The position numbers and the translations under genes were made by a program. Under the pieces are notes generated by a model. It saw only the letters and a program-made list of their open reading frames with translations. It was not told the DNA's origin and did not search any database. A stretch of DNA of 8,446 nucleotides, taken from the IMG/VR virus record IMGVR_UViG_2684622670_000004, positions 1-8,446 of that record. The stretch is one strand, 5' to 3'. This DNA comes from a virus (taxonomy: Duplodnaviria > Heunggongvirae > Uroviricota > Caudoviricetes). Of the stretch, positions 1-8,446 are shown one piece after another (positions within the stretch are counted from its first letter, which is position 1; every line of letters starts with the position of its first letter).

Positions 1-57
1 TGCACTCCATGTGTTAGCCGTGCTCAACAGGGGGATCTTTTCACCGCTTGTGCCAAG

Positions 58-83
58 TTCTCTTAAACCAAGGTTTAGGATTG
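58..83. other. Candidate cix/gix/hix-type crossover site of a DNA-inversion system (TTCTCTTAAACC-AA-GGTTTAGGATTG)
   Basis: Two imperfect inverted 12-bp half-sites (8/12 complementary) flank a central AA dinucleotide. From memory it fits the hix/gix pattern TTC..T.AAACC.AGGTTT.GGAT (about 19/26 identical to gixL as I recall it). It overlaps the stop codon (75-77) of the adjacent invertase gene. No partner site is present in the window. Confidence 0.5.
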
Positions 84-635
84 AAATGATGACGCAGGAA
101 ACTTTTTATAAAGCGTGGAAACAGCAACATCATAGATGATTGCAACCTGCTTACGGGGGATGCCATTCTCCAGCAATCGACGCATTTGCTGCCATGTTTC
201 TTCCGGGTATTTAGGTCTGCGGCCTCCTATTCGACCTTCTGCGCGAGCTGCATCAAGTCCAGCGCGTGTACGTTCAACGATAAGCTCGCGTTCCATTTCT
301 GCCAGTGCCCCCATTACGTGAAAGAAAAAGCGCCCCATTGGTGTACTGGTGTCGATGGAGTCAGTGAGACTCCGGAAGTTAATTCCTCTGTCACGTAGCT
401 CTTCCACCAGCACAACCAAGTGACGCATGCTGCGCCCAAGGCGATCTAACTTCCATACGATCAGGGTGTCACCTCTGGAAAGCATACGCAAAACCTTTTT
501 TAGCCCTGGGCGTTCAGCCTTTTTGCCGCTCGCCTTATCCTCAAAAATTAGCTCACATCCTGCGCTTTCAAGAGCGTTTCGTTGTAAAGCAGTGTTTTGT
601 TCATTTGTTGATACGCGTACATAGCCTATTAGCAT
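75..635 (-). CDS. cin: Serine recombinase, Hin/Gin/Cin/Pin-family DNA invertase (186 aa)
   Basis: N-terminal catalytic motif GYVRVSTNEQ with the active-site serine. Conserved WKLDRLGRS, SLTDSIDTS, MGRFFFHVMGALAEMERELIVERT and GRIGGR motifs, plus a C-terminal HTH (GIPRKQVAIIYDVAVSTLYKK). The symbol cin is inferred from the P1-like neighbourhood; the family call is firm, the exact orthologue (cin, gin or pin) is not. Confidence 0.9.
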   Translation of the reverse strand: MLIGYVRVSTNEQNTALQRNALESAGCELIFEDKASGKKAERPGLKKVLRMLSRGDTLIVWKLDRLGRSMRHLVVLVEELRDRGINFRSLTDSIDTSTPMGRFFFHVMGALAEMERELIVERTRAGLDAARAEGRIGGRRPKYPEETWQQMRRLLENGIPRKQVAIIYDVAVSTLYKKFPASSFQS

Positions 636-763
636 ATTTTCTGCTCACTATCGTTATTTATAGCAAGCTGCGGATTTTAATTAACAAAAAACCAGTATGT
701 GTGGAAATCACAAAGTACATACCGTTTCCCAATGAGATTTAATTCACTATTGAGGAAATAGTT
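636..763. promoter_or_regulatory. Divergent intergenic control region between the invertase gene and the lysis/dar operon
   Basis: AT-rich 128-bp spacer between divergent genes. Minus strand: possible -35 TTGTTA (plus coords 681-686) and -10 TATAAAT (655-661) with a 19-nt spacer, upstream of the invertase ATG. Plus strand: strong SD GAGGAA at 752-757, 6 nt before the ATG at 764. No clear sigma70 -35/-10 pair for the rightward operon, which would fit an activator-dependent late promoter. Confidence 0.3.
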
Positions 764-1045
764 ATGTTTGATTTCACAATAATGCTCCTCTCCATCCTTG
801 GCGGGGTGCATTCGTTTCTGAATGGGGTTCGTGAAAAACGTTACGAAGCGTCATGCAGGCAATTGATGGCCGAGTGTATTGCTGCCGTACTTGCAGGCTT
901 TATAGGCATGTATTTCGCGGAATATAAGGGTATGGATGAAAGTCTTCAGAATTGCGTGACTATTATTTGCAGCATCAATAACAGGCTCATTCTTGAAAAG
1001 TTACAAAGGATTATCGATTCGTACCTCAGTAGAAATGCCTCTTAA
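764..1045 (+). CDS. Small two-TM membrane protein, holin-like paralog of the downstream LydA-like gene (93 aa)
   Basis: ORF with a good SD. Two hydrophobic segments (FTIMLLSILGGVHSFLNGV and CIAAVLAGFIGMYFA). Clear paralogy to the next ORF (SILGGVHSFLNGVREKR vs SVIGGIGTFLMDVRDGRQ; VTIICSINN vs VTIASNN). Confidence 0.75.
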   Translation: MFDFTIMLLSILGGVHSFLNGVREKRYEASCRQLMAECIAAVLAGFIGMYFAEYKGMDESLQNCVTIICSINNRLILEKLQRIIDSYLSRNAS

Positions 1046-1086
1046 GCAACAAATGACCGGTTGAGAAGTTACTTTGCATACCATTA

Positions 1087-1106
1087 CCTCCTGACAACGT
1101 AGGAGG
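1087..1106 (+). promoter_or_regulatory. Possible SD-sequestering hairpin ahead of the LydA-like gene (CCTCCT-8 nt loop-AGGAGG)
   Basis: A 6-bp perfect stem in which the 3' arm is the AGGAGG Shine-Dalgarno of the GTG-initiated ORF at 1113. Could modulate holin translation. Seen only as sequence complementarity. Confidence 0.3.
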
Positions 1107-1112
1107 GAACTT

Positions 1113-1442
1113 GTGCTTGACACACAGGAATTAGCTCCAGTTGCTATTGCGCTCCTGCTTTCAGTAATTGGTGGGATAGGCACGTTCCTGATGGATGTCC
1201 GAGACGGTCGCCAGTCTGGCAATTTGTTGGGATTGGTTACGGAGATCTGTGTTGCAGTGACAGCTGGCGCGGTGGCGTACCTATTGGGGCAACATGAGGG
1301 CTGGGAGTTATCAATTACGTACTTAATGGTAACGATAGCCAGCAATAACGGTCATGAGGTGATTTCAGGGATGAAACGAGTGAATATCGATAGCATTCTG
1401 AATGTTCTTACAAGTTTGGTGAAAAAGGGAGGCGGGAAATGA
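1113..1442 (+). CDS. lydA: Holin, LydA-like (109 aa, GTG start)
   Basis: GTG start 6 nt after GGAGGG. Two to three predicted TM segments (LAPVAIALLLSVIGGIGTFLM, LLGLVTEICVAVTAGAVAYLLG). Its position immediately upstream of lydB-like/hdf/darA matches the P1 lysis-dar operon as I remember it. The stop overlaps the next start (ATGA). Confidence 0.75.
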   Translation: MLDTQELAPVAIALLLSVIGGIGTFLMDVRDGRQSGNLLGLVTEICVAVTAGAVAYLLGQHEGWELSITYLMVTIASNNGHEVISGMKRVNIDSILNVLTSLVKKGGGK

Positions 1443-1882
1443 TTGGCTGGGGTGTATGCGCTCTTGCGGCAGCCTTAGCTGATCGCTATTTGCTAAAACG
1501 CAAGGACATCACGAATTTAGAGCTTGGTGATGTGGAAATTAAACCGGGATTTATCCGGGTGCCGTTCAAATATCGGTCTAAATTCCCGTTTTTGCGCGGT
1601 GCAACGGTCAGATATTGGATCCGTGATGTTCAGAAGCCGACGACAGTGATTGAAGGCGAACAACGTTGCCTGACGTCGGCTGAACAGGGCGAAAACAGTG
1701 AATGGTTGTACATACCCACTGAATATATGGGTAAAGGAGAACGACTGTGGCATTTCAACGTCATGGTTACGCACGGCGACTCGTTCATTAACCCGTTGTA
1801 TCGGATTTTCCCTGTTACTCAGCAAATCCGCAGAAGTTACGTAATAAATCTCGCACAGGATGTGTCAGATGACGAAAAATAA
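1439..1882 (+). CDS. lydB: LydB-like holin antagonist / lysis regulator (147 aa)
   Basis: Start coupled to the lydA stop (ATGA overlap), with a GGGAGG SD. N-terminal hydrophobic segment (MIGWGVCALAAALA). Size and position match P1 LydB as recalled. Function inferred from synteny only. Confidence 0.65.
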   Translation: MIGWGVCALAAALADRYLLKRKDITNLELGDVEIKPGFIRVPFKYRSKFPFLRGATVRYWIRDVQKPTTVIEGEQRCLTSAEQGENSEWLYIPTEYMGKGERLWHFNVMVTHGDSFINPLYRIFPVTQQIRRSYVINLAQDVSDDEK

Positions 1883-2471
1883 GTATGCAACGGTCGATTT
1901 TGGCCAGGTTAATGAAAAGGGGCTGAAATCCCTTATCGCGGCGATCAATAAAACCGGTGTTACGGTAATTGAGGTTGACTCCAGCAACCGCGCAACAACG
2001 AAAGATGGCGTTAAAGTTAAAACCGCAAAGCTGGTTCTTAACGACGGACAAATTCTTGCCATACAGGTAAACGATACTGGTGATATATCGTCTGTGAAAC
2101 TGAATGGAAAAGCTATTCCTAATGCTCAATCGCCAGATATCAAGACGCTTGGTACCGTCATGGGGCAAGCGGCCCACAAAAACGCTGCAAAATTCCAGAA
2201 ATCACTGATCGCCAAAGCTAAACGTGTTGCCAATCCGGTAGACAAGAAACCGGCAGTTAAATCCAACTTTCAGCGCCTGCAAGAGGCAAAACAGCGGAAT
2301 GCTCAGGTGGTTGCCGCTTATAAATCCGCGCAGAACTCGGTGTCTTTCAATCAACAGCAGATCACTGATTTGCGGGCGAAGCTGGATAAGGAGACAGGTC
2401 GACTCAATAACGAAAAGGCCAGGAATGGCGAACTCAAACGCCGTCTTAAGCAACTGAAAGCAGGAAATTAA
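1860..2471 (+). CDS. hdf: Hdf, homolog of DarA fragment (203 aa; alternative start at 1869 gives 200 aa)
   Basis: Shares alignable blocks with the N-terminal third of the downstream 639-aa protein (LNDGQ-ILAIQ vs LSDGQ-TISIL; HKNAAKFQK vs EKNSAKFQR). C-terminal coiled-coil-like basic tail. The ATG at 1869 sits 9 nt after AGGA and is the more likely start. Confidence 0.75.
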   Translation: MCQMTKNKYATVDFGQVNEKGLKSLIAAINKTGVTVIEVDSSNRATTKDGVKVKTAKLVLNDGQILAIQVNDTGDISSVKLNGKAIPNAQSPDIKTLGTVMGQAAHKNAAKFQKSLIAKAKRVANPVDKKPAVKSNFQRLQEAKQRNAQVVAAYKSAQNSVSFNQQQITDLRAKLDKETGRLNNEKARNGELKRRLKQLKAGN

Positions 2472-2472
2472 C

Positions 2473-4392
2473 ATGGAACAGTTCAATATCAATAAAGGGG
2501 TGACGATTAAGCCGGGGCTTGACGTGCTTCCCCCGCCGGTGACTGATGATGAATATCGCGCATTAATGGCCGGTGAGGACCGCTATCTGATGACGGAATC
2601 CAACACCATGGAGGAAATCGAGGCTACGTTCTTCTATGACACGCCGATCCACTGGTGTACTACGGATTTACTGGAGGCGATTAGTTCTACTCGTTTGCAG
2701 TTACACCGGACCATGCAGGCATTTGTCCGGGCATTGAACCAGAAGCTTAATGGTACCGGAATCTCTGCGGGGAGTGATAAAACGGGGGATGTGGCCCAGA
2801 GCGGCACGCGAGCGATCGGCGGTGCTGAAATTGGCCGGGCACGTAACGTTAACGGGCTGCCGGTCCTGCCAGCCATTATTCCGCTCAGTGATGGTCAGAC
2901 TATCAGCATTCTGTTTCATAGCCTGACAGCGGAAAACCGGATCACCAATAGCGATACGCTGGTTGCTTTCCAGTTCTTACTGAATAAAAAAGACGTTACT
3001 CACACCGTTGCTCCGATGAGTGGACGTGATATGACGCTGGCACAGGTCACCATGAAACTTGCCAACCTTGCAGAGAAAAACTCGGCAAAATTCCAGCGTG
3101 CGCAGAAGAAGAAAAAAGCTCTTGTTGATGAAATAACCCAACTACAGGCTGACAGTGACCAGAAAGAGGATGCCATGAGCGACCTCGCGGATCAGGTGGC
3201 AGCGGTAGAAGGGCTGAAGGCAGATCTGGAGCAGAAAATTAACGCTGTTGCATCGGAAGCGGATTCTCTTTATGAAGAGAATGAGCGTTTGCAGACGGAG
3301 ATTGATCAGCTCAATCGCACAGGTGGGCGCGATACCATTGCTCCAGCGGGGATGACTGGTGGGCACTCGCGCGCGCTGACGGATCGCCTTGCCAGTATCA
3401 AAAATCGTATGCATATGAACGGGGAAGTGACGCTCAGTAATGGTGCATCAATGAAGCAATTCATTGAGGACGGCGAAGGGTATATCCAGTTAACCGATTC
3501 GGATGGCAGCGTGTACATGATCAAGGCTAAATCCATACAGGGTGTGGACATGGCAGATGCGATCGGCAAGCTGTTTAAAGCCTATAAAGCGGGTAATGTA
3601 TCGGAATATCTGGTCCAGCCAGAAGAACATAAACCAGAAAACGTCGAACCTGAACCAGCGGAGGATACCGGTAGCTCTTCGCCTGAACCAGAAGTCTCTG
3701 TAGGTGCATATCGATATGCCCTGCAAATGCGTCCGGCAGCCCCTGGCGCAATACCTGAAGGTAACAAAGCGATTCTGCCGCGCCCAGATGAAGGTGACCC
3801 GTATTATGAATATGCACGCTACGGCATTGCTACTTACGATACCCCGCTTTCTGATCAGCAAATGAGTGAGTACGACCTGAAGTTATTGCCTCGCGAGGAT
3901 TCTTTCGACTTCCTGGCGAAGACACTTACTAATGGTCCGTTTGGCAAATATGCACAAAAAGCTCTGGAGCTGGCCACCAGCTCACCAGACGAGTTCCGCG
4001 TAATGCTGAAAACTCAGTTTCAAAAAACTTTCCCCAATATTGCGTTTCCTGGGGGCGCAGGCACCGAGAAAATGGTGCAGAGCATGATCAATGCATTGCA
4101 GGCCGAAGTCGGTGAGATTACTCAACCAGAACCGGCCCCGGAACCGGCTGATGAAAAGGTTAGCGAAGCAGATGCAGAGGCTAATAAAGCCATTGAATAT
4201 CTCAATAACGTGATGGATATGCAAAGCACTGACATGGCGGAGATCCGCAACGCCAGGGGCAATGTCAGGGAAGCGATTGCTGCCCTTCAGGCTGCCGGAC
4301 GTTTTGATGAAAACGAAGAGCTGGTTAACGGCGCAGCTCGCCACCTGGCTGATCTGCTGGTAGCAATCCAGAAAGCGGGAGTAGCGGCATGA
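2473..4392 (+). CDS. darA: DarA-like capsid-internal anti-restriction / head morphogenesis protein (639 aa)
   Basis: ORF begins 1 nt after the hdf stop, with an AGGAAA SD. 639 aa matches my memory of P1 DarA. Has the internal Hdf-homologous segment, a central coiled-coil (KKKKALVDEITQLQ...EENERLQTEIDQLNR) and Pro/Glu-rich linkers (PENVEPEPAEDTGSSSPEPE; QPEPAPEPADEK). Confidence 0.8.
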   Translation: MEQFNINKGVTIKPGLDVLPPPVTDDEYRALMAGEDRYLMTESNTMEEIEATFFYDTPIHWCTTDLLEAISSTRLQLHRTMQAFVRALNQKLNGTGISAGSDKTGDVAQSGTRAIGGAEIGRARNVNGLPVLPAIIPLSDGQTISILFHSLTAENRITNSDTLVAFQFLLNKKDVTHTVAPMSGRDMTLAQVTMKLANLAEKNSAKFQRAQKKKKALVDEITQLQADSDQKEDAMSDLADQVAAVEGLKADLEQKINAVASEADSLYEENERLQTEIDQLNRTGGRDTIAPAGMTGGHSRALTDRLASIKNRMHMNGEVTLSNGASMKQFIEDGEGYIQLTDSDGSVYMIKAKSIQGVDMADAIGKLFKAYKAGNVSEYLVQPEEHKPENVEPEPAEDTGSSSPEPEVSVGAYRYALQMRPAAPGAIPEGNKAILPRPDEGDPYYEYARYGIATYDTPLSDQQMSEYDLKLLPREDSFDFLAKTLTNGPFGKYAQKALELATSSPDEFRVMLKTQFQKTFPNIAFPGGAGTEKMVQSMINALQAEVGEITQPEPAPEPADEKVSEADAEANKAIEYLNNVMDMQSTDMAEIRNARGNVREAIAALQAAGRFDENEELVNGAARHLADLLVAIQKAGVAA

Positions 4393-4754
4393 CACTATCA
4401 GCTATTGAGTTAATGGACCTCAGCGATAAGTTGGATGCTCTGATGTCCAAAGCTGCTACCGCGAGTGGCATGGAGTTGCTGGATATCAGCGATGAAATTG
4501 ACCAGATCATGCAACAGATGGGGTACGGCGCGTCCGGCGGCGGTAATGGCGAGGAAAAACAACCTTCGGTACATGATGGTATACCAAAACTGGTTGCTGA
4601 TTTCCTGGCTGATAAATTCGTCGATCAGAGCACCGATGCATTTATCGGTACGTTGCAGGACTTAAGTCAATATGTTGGCACATACATCGACCTGGACCAG
4701 GTTAAACAGCACACGGCGGTATGGATAGCCGCCAACATTAAAGAGGCAGCATAA
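4389..4754 (+). CDS. ddrA: DdrA-like small acidic protein downstream of darA (121 aa)
   Basis: Start overlaps the darA stop (ATGA), with a GGGAG SD. Acidic, with a Gly-rich loop (GYGASGGGNGEE). Position and size fit P1 ddrA as recalled. Confidence 0.65.
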   Translation: MTLSAIELMDLSDKLDALMSKAATASGMELLDISDEIDQIMQQMGYGASGGGNGEEKQPSVHDGIPKLVADFLADKFVDQSTDAFIGTLQDLSQYVGTYIDLDQVKQHTAVWIAANIKEAA

Positions 4755-4766
4755 GGCGTAACAGGG

Positions 4767-6455
4767 ATGAGTTTAAACGATCAGATAGTTATGACCACCA
4801 GCAGCGGATACAACGGTGTTGCGCCATATACCAGCTTGTTATTACATCGGGCATCCGGCATCAAAGATATTATTCACCTGATCCGGCTGCTTTCCCGCAC
4901 AGATCCCCAGGATGAACAGCTGGTACAAGTGCTTGCGCATTTTGTCCGAATCCCTGTTGCAGACGTGAAAAAATGGTGTCGATTATTCGGTATCAGCAAT
5001 TCGTTACTTCGCGGATTGTTAAATCACGCATCCTCCCTTGGGCGAGACGGCTTTGATGAGATAGCGCAGGCGATAAAAAACGGAGATATGCCACCAGCTA
5101 TTGACTGGTTTTCCATTCGCCCAACCAGGGTGAAAGCATTCCTTAGCGCGGCGCAATCAGCATCACCATTGGCAGAAATGGTTCAGAGGTTGTCGCTCAT
5201 ATTCACAGATCATACCGCGTTTGGTGATCTGGCTCTGGACGAGATGAAAGAAGCCGCCATTCAGTGGGCCGATCAACAAAATGAGGTTAACTCTGACTTC
5301 TTGCCAGCATTCAGGAAGGCCGTTAGTAAAGCGGATGATGCCCGTGGAATTATGAAGGCATTTAAGGCATTGCAAAGTCGGGTTAATAAACATGCCGGTG
5401 ATATCGATGGGGTAACGGCGGAAGGCCGGGATATCCTGAAAGAGCACGGCATAACGCCAGAATTTATTGATGAGATCAGGACGGATATGCAGCGTGAGGT
5501 CGTATCGTCTCTGCAAATCGTAGCCAGGGCGTTGGCGGATGCTAATCCGAAGAGTGCGGCCATTGTTAACCGGGTTATTGGTGATATTGAAGCATCTGAG
5601 GGCATGGGGGCACTGAAACTCTTCCTTTCGCGAGCGTTTAATCCTAACGGCAATATTCTTCCCGGCATTATTGGTGAGGCTAAAAAGTATGTCAGTGAAG
5701 AAGAACTTGAGCAGCTTGACCAACTACTTAAGCGATTCTCATATAACCCGCAGACACGCTGGCAAATGAATCAGCGAGGTATGGGTTTGGTCCACGAGAA
5801 AGTGTTATCTGCCATGAACAGTGCGATCGCAAACTCATCTGTATCTGAAGAAAAAGCTCTTGAGTGGGCCGACTCTTTTATCACGGAAGAAGTGGAAGAA
5901 GCCCGCGCTGGACAGAATGGTGGGATAGACCTGCGCAAGGAACTTGCTGATATTTATCGCCTGAGCGGCGGGAAAATATCGACCTTATCAAAGGTAGTTC
6001 ACCACCAGGGAAGGGCATATGCAAATCTAAATGGTGTTGTTGCTGTCAATTTGAACGATGAAAATGCAAGTGCACTGTGGCACGAGCTGGGTCATCATCT
6101 TGAGTACAGTAACCCTGGTTTGTTAGAGAAAGCCCGGTCATTCCTGAAGGCCAATGTTGAAGGGGATAAACCATCTTTCGTTAATATCGGTGGGCGTGGC
6201 AAGCCTGAATGGTGCTTCAGATCTCAATTGAGTAATATTTATATGGCGAAGGTATACCCGCCAGTCTCAGTAAGTAACACCGGGAAAATTCGGCAGAAAT
6301 CACCGACTATTTCCAAAACGTCAGCAACGGAAGTATTCTCTATGGCTCTTCAGTTGTATCATGACAAAGAGGCCGCTGCCGCATCACTGATGAATGGTGA
6401 CGGATTGCTGGAACTGTTATTAGGTGTGGCAAAGGAGCTAAATAATGCAGATTAA
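4767..6455 (+). CDS. HExxH-motif putative zinc metallopeptidase in the ddrB position of the dar operon (562 aa)
   Basis: Long ORF with operon-consistent codon usage. Near the C-terminus is WHELGHHLEY (HExxH zincin signature) with downstream Glu candidates (LLEKARSF; NVEGD) for the third ligand. I do not recognise the N-terminal two-thirds. I cannot confirm orthology to P1 DdrB from memory. Confidence 0.7.
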   Translation: MSLNDQIVMTTSSGYNGVAPYTSLLLHRASGIKDIIHLIRLLSRTDPQDEQLVQVLAHFVRIPVADVKKWCRLFGISNSLLRGLLNHASSLGRDGFDEIAQAIKNGDMPPAIDWFSIRPTRVKAFLSAAQSASPLAEMVQRLSLIFTDHTAFGDLALDEMKEAAIQWADQQNEVNSDFLPAFRKAVSKADDARGIMKAFKALQSRVNKHAGDIDGVTAEGRDILKEHGITPEFIDEIRTDMQREVVSSLQIVARALADANPKSAAIVNRVIGDIEASEGMGALKLFLSRAFNPNGNILPGIIGEAKKYVSEEELEQLDQLLKRFSYNPQTRWQMNQRGMGLVHEKVLSAMNSAIANSSVSEEKALEWADSFITEEVEEARAGQNGGIDLRKELADIYRLSGGKISTLSKVVHHQGRAYANLNGVVAVNLNDENASALWHELGHHLEYSNPGLLEKARSFLKANVEGDKPSFVNIGGRGKPEWCFRSQLSNIYMAKVYPPVSVSNTGKIRQKSPTISKTSATEVFSMALQLYHDKEAAAASLMNGDGLLELLLGVAKELNNAD

Positions 6456-6765
6456 AATCGCAGCGCCATTAGGCGGAGATGCCATTATCGAATTTGATGA
6501 TAATGAAGAAGTTTCCGGGCGTTTAAGCATTATCTCCGGTGACATTACCGAGGACATGATCGCTGAAGCCATAGCTGGGGCAAATCCCAATAGCTATATG
6601 GGATTCGTTAACACCCTTGATGCTCCCGCAAGTGATGTTCTCCGAACGCTGCATCTTTACGCTGGCTGGTTTGTTGATTGGCCAGCAGTAGATGGTGGCG
6701 ATGAGGATGATGATGACGATGAAGAGGGTTTTAGTGATGAAACAGTCAACCAACTCTTGTATTGA
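6445..6765 (+). CDS. Hyperacidic small protein, possible DNA-mimic-type anti-restriction factor (106 aa)
   Basis: AAGGAG SD 8 nt before the ATG. Overlaps the preceding stop by 11 nt. About 27 Asp/Glu against 3 Lys/Arg, with a C-terminal DGGDEDDDDDEEGFSDE tract. Last gene of the operon. Confidence 0.7.
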   Translation: MQIKIAAPLGGDAIIEFDDNEEVSGRLSIISGDITEDMIAEAIAGANPNSYMGFVNTLDAPASDVLRTLHLYAGWFVDWPAVDGGDEDDDDDEEGFSDETVNQLLY

Positions 6766-6894
6766 CAGGAATTGGCATAGAATTGATTGTTCAAATTTCA
6801 TCCATCACATAGACGACTTCATGTTATTTGCCTGATAATTATGGCCTTAATAACCCATGTATATCTTTTGGGTTATATTCTTATCTTTAACAAG

Positions 6895-6940
6895 GTTATA
6901 AGAGCGACAATGATAAATTTATCACTATCGCTCTTATAAC
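6895..6940. repeat. 46-bp near-perfect palindrome (21 of 23 base pairs complementary, no spacer)
   Basis: GTTATAAGAGCGACAATGATAAAT / ATTTATCACTATCGCTCTTATAAC. The only mismatches are at 6908/6927 and 6910/6925. Followed by TCTTTGTT. Lies 130 bp downstream of the operon's last stop codon. Confidence 0.85.
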
Positions 6941-6968
6941 TCTTTGTTAGCTATAGCTTTAAACAAAT

Positions 6969-7175
6969 TTAGTTTTGAGGCAATGCAACAAAAGTCAGCT
7001 CTTGATCTTTGATTAATGCTTTTGTTTGTTTGGATGTAATTCCCACTTTAGTTTTTACATCATTGTGGAGCTTCTTATACGCTTTTATTTCATCTGCTGT
7101 ATATCGGAAGCCATTTGCACTGTTACTGGACAGTTGAAGTGCGATTACGTCATCACTGACACCCGCATCGCTTAG
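6969..7175 (-). pseudogene. Start-less 68-codon protein-like open frame, possible remnant of a truncated gene
   Basis: Minus-strand frame translating to LSDAGVSDDVIALQLSSNSANGFRYTADEIKAYKKLHNDVKTKVGITSKQTKALIKDQELTFVALPQN*. It is bounded upstream by an in-frame TAG (plus 7176-7178) and contains no ATG. All three upstream frames are stop-rich. Composition is not typical of random AT-rich translation. Confidence 0.25.
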
Positions 7176-7469
7176 CTATGCGGGTAATAGTGTGGCCTGC
7201 GCGAGTGTTTGTGGTGGATATTTTGTCTAAGAAATTGTTCAGTTTTGCCATTGTTTACAACCTCTTACTTGAGTTTATTGCAAGTAGAATTGCTACTATT
7301 CTTTTGCCTCAACGAATCACAATGTACTGGAATAAGAAACTATGAGCAATACTTACGCTTTGCGAATACAGAAGATGAATAATCAACTTATTACTAAAAT
7401 GTTAATAATATTATTCTGTTACATAGTGTTCGCTATAACAATCGGGAGTTGAATGCTAATTCAATAAAT

Positions 7470-7497
7470 AAAGAACCCGCCAATTGGCGGGTTCTTT
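7470..7497. terminator. Bidirectional rho-independent terminator (AAAGAACCCGCC-AATT-GGCGGGTTCTTT)
   Basis: Perfect 12-bp GC-containing stem with a 4-nt loop. Flanked by a T-run on the plus strand (TTTTTA) and by ATTTATTTATT on the minus strand. Directly abuts the stop codon of the convergent 264-aa gene. Confidence 0.75.
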
Positions 7498-8292
7498 TTA
7501 ATCACTTTCCACTTCTTCCGTGGTGTTTTCTTGCAGTTCTGTTAATGCAGCACGACACAGGTTCCGGGCCTTGGCTATAGCCACACTTTTTACCTCATCC
7601 GTCATTGTGCAGGTAATGTACTGATCGAGTTCTTCAGCTCGGATGATGCTTTTCCCAATCATAAACTCTATTTGCCAGAGCAGATCGGCATCCATCGTCA
7701 GTATTTCAGCCTGGCCTTCTGGGCCTGCGGGGAAGCAAACATAAGACTGTTTTCCCAGGCCGATAACTCGACAACTTGCTTCAAGAATTGCGCGCTTGAG
7801 GTCTGACTTTGTAACGGAAACAGGTTGGTTTTCACCAGTGATTACGCCGTTGACATGGAAGTGGAAGGGCATGTAGCTTGAAATTCGCTCTACTTTCCAT
7901 ACGCCAGCAAGCGATCCTTCATGCAGCACAATGGGGGTAACCGCGAGTTTCATCTCACCATATAACTGCTGGCAGATAGCTGGATTGCTGAATACATCCA
8001 AAGGCTCACATTCAAACAGCGGCGCAATCTGCATGAGGTCCATCATGGTCATCCCTGGGGTCCGAGCAGTAATGAATTTGCGCATGCCAGTATCCATTGT
8101 GCGCCAGATAGCCATACCATGCTTTTTGCTCACTTCTTCAGTAAAACCAAGGTGGCACATGATGGTCTTTTCGATAGCCAGATCAGAGATAGAAACCTTT
8201 TCGCCTGGCACTCCATCATTATTGATGGTCACTTCGACACTCTGGCCATTACGTAGGCGGTATTGAATGGTTTTAGTATTTTGTGCTGTCAT
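7498..8292 (-). CDS. Hypothetical protein, function unknown (264 aa)
   Basis: Long uninterrupted ORF ending at the terminator. Weak SD (GAGAAAAGA) 14 nt after the stop of an upstream partial ORF, suggesting an operon. Contains His-rich segments (PIVLHEGS; MPFHFHVNG) but no motif I can assign to a family. Confidence 0.7.
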   Translation of the reverse strand: MTAQNTKTIQYRLRNGQSVEVTINNDGVPGEKVSISDLAIEKTIMCHLGFTEEVSKKHGMAIWRTMDTGMRKFITARTPGMTMMDLMQIAPLFECEPLDVFSNPAICQQLYGEMKLAVTPIVLHEGSLAGVWKVERISSYMPFHFHVNGVITGENQPVSVTKSDLKRAILEASCRVIGLGKQSYVCFPAGPEGQAEILTMDADLLWQIEFMIGKSIIRAEELDQYITCTMTDEVKSVAIAKARNLCRAALTELQENTTEEVESD

Positions 8293-8306
8293 AGTCTTTT
8301 CTCTGC

Positions 8307-8446
8307 TTAAAAACTGATGTATTGCGCCTTCAGGTTGGTTAGGAATGTTTTCCCACCAGCGAAAGCAATATCTCGGGGTGTTCTATTCGTTGTAGAGTAG
8401 GCCTCTGGTTTGAAGTCATCTCCCCAGCAGCCCCTCGTCAAACCGT
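8307..8446 (-). CDS. 3' end of a minus-strand gene truncated by the window edge (last 45 codons plus stop)
   Basis: Open frame from the window edge to TAA (plus 8307-8309), translating to ...GLTRGCWGDDFKPEAYSTTNRTPRDIAFAGGKTFLTNLKAQYISF*. It is 14 nt upstream of the 264-aa gene start. No start codon is visible because the 5' end lies outside the window. Confidence 0.4.
   Translation of the reverse strand, partial: GLTRGCWGDDFKPEAYSTTNRTPRDIAFAGGKTFLTNLKAQYISF

Follow-up and report, generated by a model that had tools for sequence, protein, structure and literature searches.

A low-GC module at the hxr/isaA junction of a P1-like phage-plasmid

The DNA analysed here (hereafter, the window) is a stretch of 8,446 nucleotides, positions 1 to 8,446 of the IMG/VR virus record IMGVR_UViG_2684622670_000004. 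A megablast search identifies it as part of a Punavirus (P1-like) phage-plasmid, with the window + strand corresponding to the P1 minus strand, and we named its genes by colinearity with the annotated P1 record together with BLAST. The gene order is cin (75–635, − strand) and lydC, after which comes the late 'dar' operon lydA-lydB-hdf-darA-ddrA-ddrB-hxr, in which darA (2473–4392), ddrA (4389–4754), and a shortened ddrB (4767–6455) precede the last gene, hxr (6445–6765, + strand). The ddrB product has 562 aa in the window compared with 995 aa in P1 and the phage Ro157c2, reflecting an in-frame loss of ~1.3 kb with the break at 4803/4809 that is common to Escherichia albertii plasmids such as pEA18_2. 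The P1 annotation gives Hxr as possibly an Xre-like repressor, and Hxr has no Pfam hit at E<0.1. Its C-terminal tail is strongly acidic (DGGDEDDDDDEEGFSDE), the last ~15 codons belonging to swapped-in sequence; encoded in an operon, dar, that serves anti-restriction, Hxr resembles acidic or DNA-mimic-type proteins more than it does a repressor.

Homology to P1 ends at ~6720–6722, inside the 3′ end of hxr, and resumes exactly at the stop codon (7498) of isaA (7498–8292), which lies on the opposite strand and reads towards hxr. Between these sharp breaks is a lineage-specific module of 775 bp (6723–7497) with 35% GC, compared with 47% in its flanks, that comprises a 46-bp palindrome, a gene that we refer to as orf95, and the region upstream of orf95. 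The same interval is occupied by isaB and IS1 in P1 and by a 364-aa open reading frame in the E. albertii plasmid pEA18_2. The isaA-IS1-isaB segment corresponds to variable region 2, or RD-2, of P1-like phage-plasmids (PMC9603915, PMC6906374), and the genes neighbouring the palindrome are all non-essential in P1 (PMC10695390). In Ro157c2, a 225-aa gene with a Tad2-like domain (Thoeris anti-defence 2, PF11195, E=1.6e-22) lies at 9893–10570, between isaA and ssb, and is absent from the window (insertion point ~8282–8289), which suggests that the ssb-hxr hot spot collects anti-defence cargo.

orf95 (6969–7251, − strand) is an orphan gene of 95 aa that converges on hxr. It is intact in every relative (− strand, between 7256 and 6969; WP_000413423), these other carriers being 15 plasmids, 25 E. 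coli genomes (in a 780-bp form), and Ro157c2. In the window it is frameshifted by a 5-bp deletion near 7170 in which one tandem copy of GCTTA is lost, and orf95 is therefore dispensable. Orf95 forms three clusters among 5.8 billion proteins, and searches for its function returned no significant Pfam, PHROG, PDB-sequence, or Foldseek hit; its AF2 model is a low-confidence helical bundle (pLDDT 65). The only distant homologue (54% identity, 111 aa) is on metagenome contig Ga0226836_10283888 (234–864), from an AT-rich organism, where it comes second in a pair of overlapping genes whose other member is unannotated (100 aa), and where it is followed by an unrelated GC-rich hairpin lacking a U-tract. 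We found no strong sigma-70 consensus upstream of orf95.

Hairpins at the hxr junction in related elements

At the far end of the module, directly next to the isaA stop codon, is a canonical bidirectional terminator (AAAGAACCCGCCAATTGGCGGGTTCTTT, 7470–7497) with homology to the hxr/converging-gene hairpin of RCS47, pMB2910_2, p91, and pEA18_2, in all of which a textbook bidirectional terminator, AGAAATCCCGCCAAT(C/T)GGCGGGATTTTT, lies directly past the hxr stop. In pMB2910_2, p91, and pEA18_2 the terminator is followed directly by the end of the converging gene, whereas in RCS47 it is followed by a transposase gene (ISSod13) on the same strand as hxr rather than by a converging gene end. P1 and P7 carry a different hairpin at their hxr junction (GGCTTGCTT...AAGCAAGC(C/T)).

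The simplest layout, that of pMB2910_2 and p91, is hxr, terminator, and converging isaA. Because the homologous terminator now lies beyond orf95, the inserted module has split hxr from its original terminator and brought a hairpin of its own; in the window lineage the terminator stays with isaA, and it is the palindrome that now separates hxr from orf95. This is the arrangement that a phage moron should have if its 3′ hairpin doubles as insulation against an oncoming late operon. Between hxr and the palindrome there is also a small + strand hairpin (6851–6880; AAUAACCCA...UGGGUUAU and then AUUCUUAUCUUU), which may act as a weak first hxr terminator or else belong to a small RNA as its 5′ hairpin.

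A 46-bp spacer-less palindrome between hxr and orf95

The palindrome occupies positions 6895–6940 and consists of two 23-nt arms, GTTATAAGAGCGACAATGATAAA and TTTATCACTATCGCTCTTATAAC, with a spacer of 0. Its symmetry passes through the centre AAA/TTT, and 21 of the 23 pairs of positions are complementary. A match of at least 21 of 23 pairs is expected by chance 2.9e-7 times per window, or 1.3e-6 times at the local AT-rich composition; the best palindrome in 30 shuffles of the window reaches only 16/23, and no other inverted repeat of at least 16 nt is present in the window. The palindrome itself is thus confirmed as real, and the proposal in the earlier note that so long a spacer-less inverted repeat is improbable by chance (~3e-7 to 1e-6 expected per window) is borne out.

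Mismatches occur at C6908/A6927 and A6910/C6925, in each case C/A on the + strand and hence G·U in RNA of the − strand; the earlier note had called them central, but their distances from the centre are 8 and 10 nt. That note had also placed the palindrome just downstream of the operon, which is correct insofar as it starts 129 nt past the hxr stop (6765), but the palindrome is closer to the converging orf95 stop (6969), with 28 nt between them, or 17 nt if the extended stem is counted. This extended stem results from weaker pairing of an A-rich 5′ flank, TTTAACAAG, with a T-rich 3′ flank, CTCTTTGTTAG, giving an imperfect inverted repeat spanning ~6887–6951 and lengthening the hairpin on both strands; the A-rich/T-rich arrangement is that of bidirectional terminators. 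Two further details of the earlier description are as it gave them: a T-rich tail, TCTTTGTT, follows the hairpin on the + (hxr-sense) strand at 6941–6948, and each arm contains the core GCTCTTATAA.

Distribution and conservation

The palindrome accompanies only the orf95 module, in ~45 copies that are essentially identical. Its carriers include 15 PLSDB plasmids from E. coli and E. albertii and the phage vB_EcoM-Ro157c2YLVW, with contig matches in IMG/VR (four) and metagenomes (two). Among 5,426 complete E. coli genomes it is present in 25, always in P1-like plasmids of ~90–103 kb, and these carriers are mostly STEC of O111, O157, and O103. We looked for diverged copies using blastn in a distant mode (phages, plasmids, and E. 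coli genomes) and degenerate-pattern scans (IMG/VR, GTDB, and JGI/ENA metagenomes). These blastn and pattern searches returned only identical copies and so none for covariation analysis, and the pattern scan of GTDB species-representative genomes gave no palindrome hits. Eighteen other metagenome hits share only 11-mer arms, and we discarded them as unrelated hairpins.

Across the window, seven plasmids, Ro157c2, and six IMG/VR and metagenome contigs, the palindrome is unchanged except for a single 1-bp deletion in the TT at 6896–6897 of pESA139_3; the adjoining 125 bp of spacer have three SNPs in the copies compared (6832, 6846, and 6880). The remaining carriers are 99–100% identical over 206 bp or 98–99% identical over the 775-bp module. 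Since the copies are essentially identical, conservation of the palindrome carries little weight.

The palindrome is not a recognisable C1 operator

The earlier note had likened the arm cores to the operator consensus of the P1 C1 immunity repressor and suggested that the palindrome may be a bipartite C1 operator. The consensus that it gave, ATTGCTCTAATAAATTT, equals that of the P1 operators: the RefSeq record of P1 annotates 20 for C1, and from these we derived a position weight matrix. (In this record, NC_005856, the 18-nt protein_bind feature for Omat at 2628–2645 is annotated on the strand opposite to the operator sequence, CATGCACTAATAAATAT, which is on the + strand.) The complete 97.9-kb plasmid pO111_2 of E. 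coli O111:H- 11128 carries an identical palindrome, and its C1 is identical to P1 C1 at 281 of 283 residues (99%); the P1 matrix therefore applies.

There is some likeness to the P1 C1 operators, both the monovalent 17-mers and the bivalent Oban and Oc1, in that the palindrome is AT-rich, shares the GCTCT-ATAA core, and has an AAATTT centre resembling that of the bivalent operators. The best 17-mer, ATCGCTCTTATAACTCT in the right half (6927–6943, + strand), matches ATTGCTCTAATAAATTT at 13 of 17 positions and is the top-scoring site in the window, at 8.3 bits; its mirror, GTCGCTCTTATAACCTT (6892–6908, − strand), has 12/17 matches and scores −2.5 bits. Both halves also fall within the range of consensus mismatches in real operators (0–7). 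However, 18 of the 20 P1 operators score at least 15 bits (15–28) when each is left out of the matrix in turn, and a score as high as that of the right half is expected 0.37 times by chance in shuffles of the 775-bp AT-rich module. In pO111_2, 22 sites score at least 14.5 bits, with CTAAT in 21 of them and CTAAC in one (the counterpart of P1 Oc1c), and a further 15 sites form a noise band at 7–12 bits; the palindrome half is among these 15, so that the matrix comparison proposed in the earlier note places it at noise level.

The base positions and geometry also differ from those of true operators. The conserved operator core is TGC(T/A)CTAAT, with A at position 9 in 20/20 and T at position 3 in 19/20 of the P1 operators, but the sequence of both palindrome halves is CGCTCTTAT, in which position 3 is C and position 9 is T. 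The bivalent operators Obanab and Oc1ab consist of convergent 17-mers overlapping by 6 bp around AAATTT, for a total of 28 bp, whereas the halves of the palindrome are divergent and separated by an 18-bp gap; aligned in the true bivalent register around AAATTT, they score 0.0 and −8.6 bits. The sites that C1 binds are asymmetric, and it does so as a monomer; the palindrome does not lie at a recognised early promoter. With up to one mismatch allowed, the half-sites CGCTCTTATAAC and GTTATAAGAGCGA occur in pO111_2 only at the palindrome and nowhere in P1, so the further copies that the earlier note proposed to look for are lacking in both. Noise-level scores together with the absence of the half-site elsewhere are what the earlier note had set, on the computational side, as grounds for refutation, and on matrix scores, core positions, geometry, and the genome-wide search we reject the C1 operator, which we now regard as very improbable.

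Folding and terminator-like features

On both strands the palindrome is predicted to form the stable RNA stem-loop characteristic of intrinsic terminators. The + strand RNA folds into a 13-bp stem, a 3×3 internal loop, and a 5-bp stem (ΔG −20.9 kcal/mol), and the − strand RNA into 21 contiguous pairs, including two G·U pairs, closed by a 4-nt loop (ΔG −28.7 kcal/mol); the z-scores are −9.9 and −11.8, respectively, and none of 200 shuffles folds equally well. As both mismatches are transitions that become G·U on the orf95-sense strand, the stem is perfect there, although G·U-compatible mismatches have a chance of ~0.2 under neutrality and are a weak argument. The location, at a convergent hxr/orf95 junction and 17–28 nt past the orf95 stop, is at the end of a transcription unit, as for a terminator.

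Other properties fit a standard terminator less well. Intrinsic terminators of E. coli typically have GC-rich stems of roughly 5–14 bp, whereas the palindrome stem has 21–23 pairs, only six of them G-C, and a base (GUUAUAA/UUAUAAC) that is A/U-rich beside the tail. The adjacent U-tracts are short and interrupted: the + strand tail, in which UCUUUGUU has 6/8 U, has a borderline score (3.7 summed over all positions, 2.7 counting T only), and the − strand tail, CTTGTTAA, in which CUUGUUAA has 4/8 U, is sub-threshold (2.8 and 1.5). A consensus terminator scan called the palindrome on neither strand. In addition, the would-be RNA loop, AAUU, keeps the dyad symmetry, which a hairpin does not need and which has a chance of ~1/16; this hints at symmetry at the DNA level. 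The best Rfam 15 matches over the palindrome are to eukaryotic miRNA-precursor models, at 20–28 bits compared with gathering scores of 64–249.

A candidate cassette-borne terminator

The explanation that we tentatively favour, at a little less than an even chance, is that the palindrome is a cassette-borne terminator or 3′-end hairpin that insulates convergent transcription. It would act as an RNA hairpin, the 3′-end or terminator element of a small imported 'moron' cassette consisting of a promoter region, orf95, and the hairpin, inserted at the hxr/isaA convergent junction of a P1-like phage-plasmid. Transcription of the − strand would produce an orf95 transcript closed by the 21-bp stem, or by ~28 bp with the flanks. 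For the late darA-hxr transcript on the + strand, the palindrome would be the first strong hairpin, and because it is followed by UCUUUGUU it would limit antisense read-through into orf95, isaA, and ssb. That transcription halts or is processed at the palindrome we infer from its position between converging hxr and orf95, 17–28 nt from the orf95 stop; from the hairpins, some of them canonical terminators, that relatives have at this junction; from the sharp boundaries and low GC of the module, which lies in a known variable region; and from the stable folds predicted for either strand, together with the A- and T-rich flanks and G·U compatibility on the orf95 strand. Sites acting as DNA gained no support as alternatives, the arm motif having no further copy in the window, in pO111_2, or in P1. 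Against it are the long AT-rich stem, the weak U-tracts, the lack of a consensus-scan call, and the symmetry through the loop. An AT-rich terminator was among the possibilities listed in the earlier note, and it is the one best supported by position and folding.

The palindrome resembles the hxr/isaA terminator of P1-like phage-plasmids (AGAAATCCCGCCAATYGGCGGGATTTTT) in lying between the same converging units, in having A- and T-rich flanks on both strands, and in forming a strong hairpin in either orientation. Unlike that terminator, to which it has no sequence similarity, it has a 21–23-bp AT-rich stem rather than an 8–12-bp GC-rich one, and its interrupted U-tracts escape the consensus scan. 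It would be an element of an ordinary type, apart from the unusual length and AT-richness of its stem. The module as a whole is similar to phage morons, in which a promoter, gene, and terminator lie between conserved phage genes: it is a low-GC foreign segment with an orphan gene, inserted in a hot spot between conserved genes, ending in a hairpin, and dispensable (frameshifted in the window), with a putative promoter and a putative terminator.

Alternative explanations

The palindrome could instead function as DNA: a DNA-binding protein, dimeric or tetrameric and encoded by the cassette (orf95) or by the host, may use it as an operator or nucleation site, and the target sequence would be the perfect 14-bp core, TGATAAATTTATCA, the outer arms, GTTATAAGAGCG, or both. 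The perfect spacer-less central symmetry, unneeded by a hairpin loop, would be accounted for, and the near-constancy of the palindrome next to three SNPs in the adjoining 125 bp points weakly in this direction. Orf95 is small and helical, and its best fold matches, although non-significant, are HTH-type N-domains of small terminases; yet it has no Pfam, PHROG, or PDB match, and its model is a low-confidence one (pLDDT 65). A weak promoter-like site (TTAACA-16-AATGAT) overlaps the left arm, but the region has two promoter-like hits, fewer than in shuffles (4.4). Searches of the window, the 97.9-kb carrier plasmid, and P1 gave no further copy of either target motif. The palindrome is moreover downstream of orf95, the only cassette gene, rather than upstream of it, and this is not a normal position for autoregulation. 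Similarity to a Fur box extends to only 11 of 19 positions, and we rejected this assignment. With nothing found that positively supports a DNA-binding role, we consider it unlikely.

A second role at the RNA level, which we think improbable, is as an RNase III processing site or a lambda sib-like retroregulation site governing the stability of orf95 or hxr mRNA, or as part of a small RNA produced from the hxr-orf95 spacer. RNase III needs roughly 20 bp of double-stranded RNA, and the − strand stem provides a near-continuous duplex of this length, with 21 contiguous pairs and ~28 with the flanks; since a stem of 21–28 bp is long enough, processing could occur instead of, or besides, termination. 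The + strand internal loop is like those of phage T7 processing sites, and, as with sib, the extended stem forms only in read-through transcripts. The spacer between hxr and orf95 also has a promoter-like site (6810–6839) and a 5′ hairpin. The lambda sib and T7 RNase III hairpins likewise have stems of at least 20 bp at the 3′ end of a phage transcript, with an extended form that needs read-through, but they have no sequence relationship with the palindrome and the analogy is purely structural. No Rfam family reaches threshold (20–28 versus 64–249 bits), and conservation is confined to one near-clonal lineage. Dedicated regulation of the orf95 cassette, with the palindrome either the DNA target of Orf95 or a sib-like RNase III retroregulator, likewise seems to us a long shot; in the first form, Orf95 would represent a new family of small DNA-binding proteins, and in the retroregulator form, late darA-hxr read-through could be coupled to destruction of the antisense orf95 message.

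The palindrome may also have no selected function, being a leftover of the creation or import of the module by inverted duplication or template switching, and at most a cruciform-prone or recombination-prone site. The narrow lineage and near-identity of the copies are compatible with this, conservation among such copies being uninformative on selection; orf95 is dispensable, a 1-bp deletion affects the outer arm in one carrier, and the central symmetry fits a DNA-level origin. Its placement exactly at a convergent gene junction, between A- and T-rich flanks, nevertheless looks functional, and we judge the absence of a selected function unlikely. A junction scar was rejected, as 170 and 560 bp separate the palindrome from the module breakpoints (~6722 and 7497, respectively). 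We compared the palindrome with recombination sites (lox, dif/cer, cix/hix, and integron attC) by eye only; in this comparison its outer ends, GTTAT...ATAAC, are in the opposite order to those of loxP (ATAAC...GTTAT) and attC (RYYYAAC...GTTRRRY), and its GATAA...TTATC core is reversed relative to hix/cix.

Implications

General interest in the palindrome is low, confined as it is to a small near-clonal lineage and lying beside genes that are non-essential in P1. The gain is a modest one: a wrong C1-operator annotation is kept out of the P1 immunity regulon, and a cassette in the isaA-IS1-isaB region would be seen to bring its own transcription-insulating hairpin when it parts an operon from its original bidirectional terminator. 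Since P1-like plasmids spread resistance and anti-defence genes via such hot spots, this cassette architecture is useful to know.
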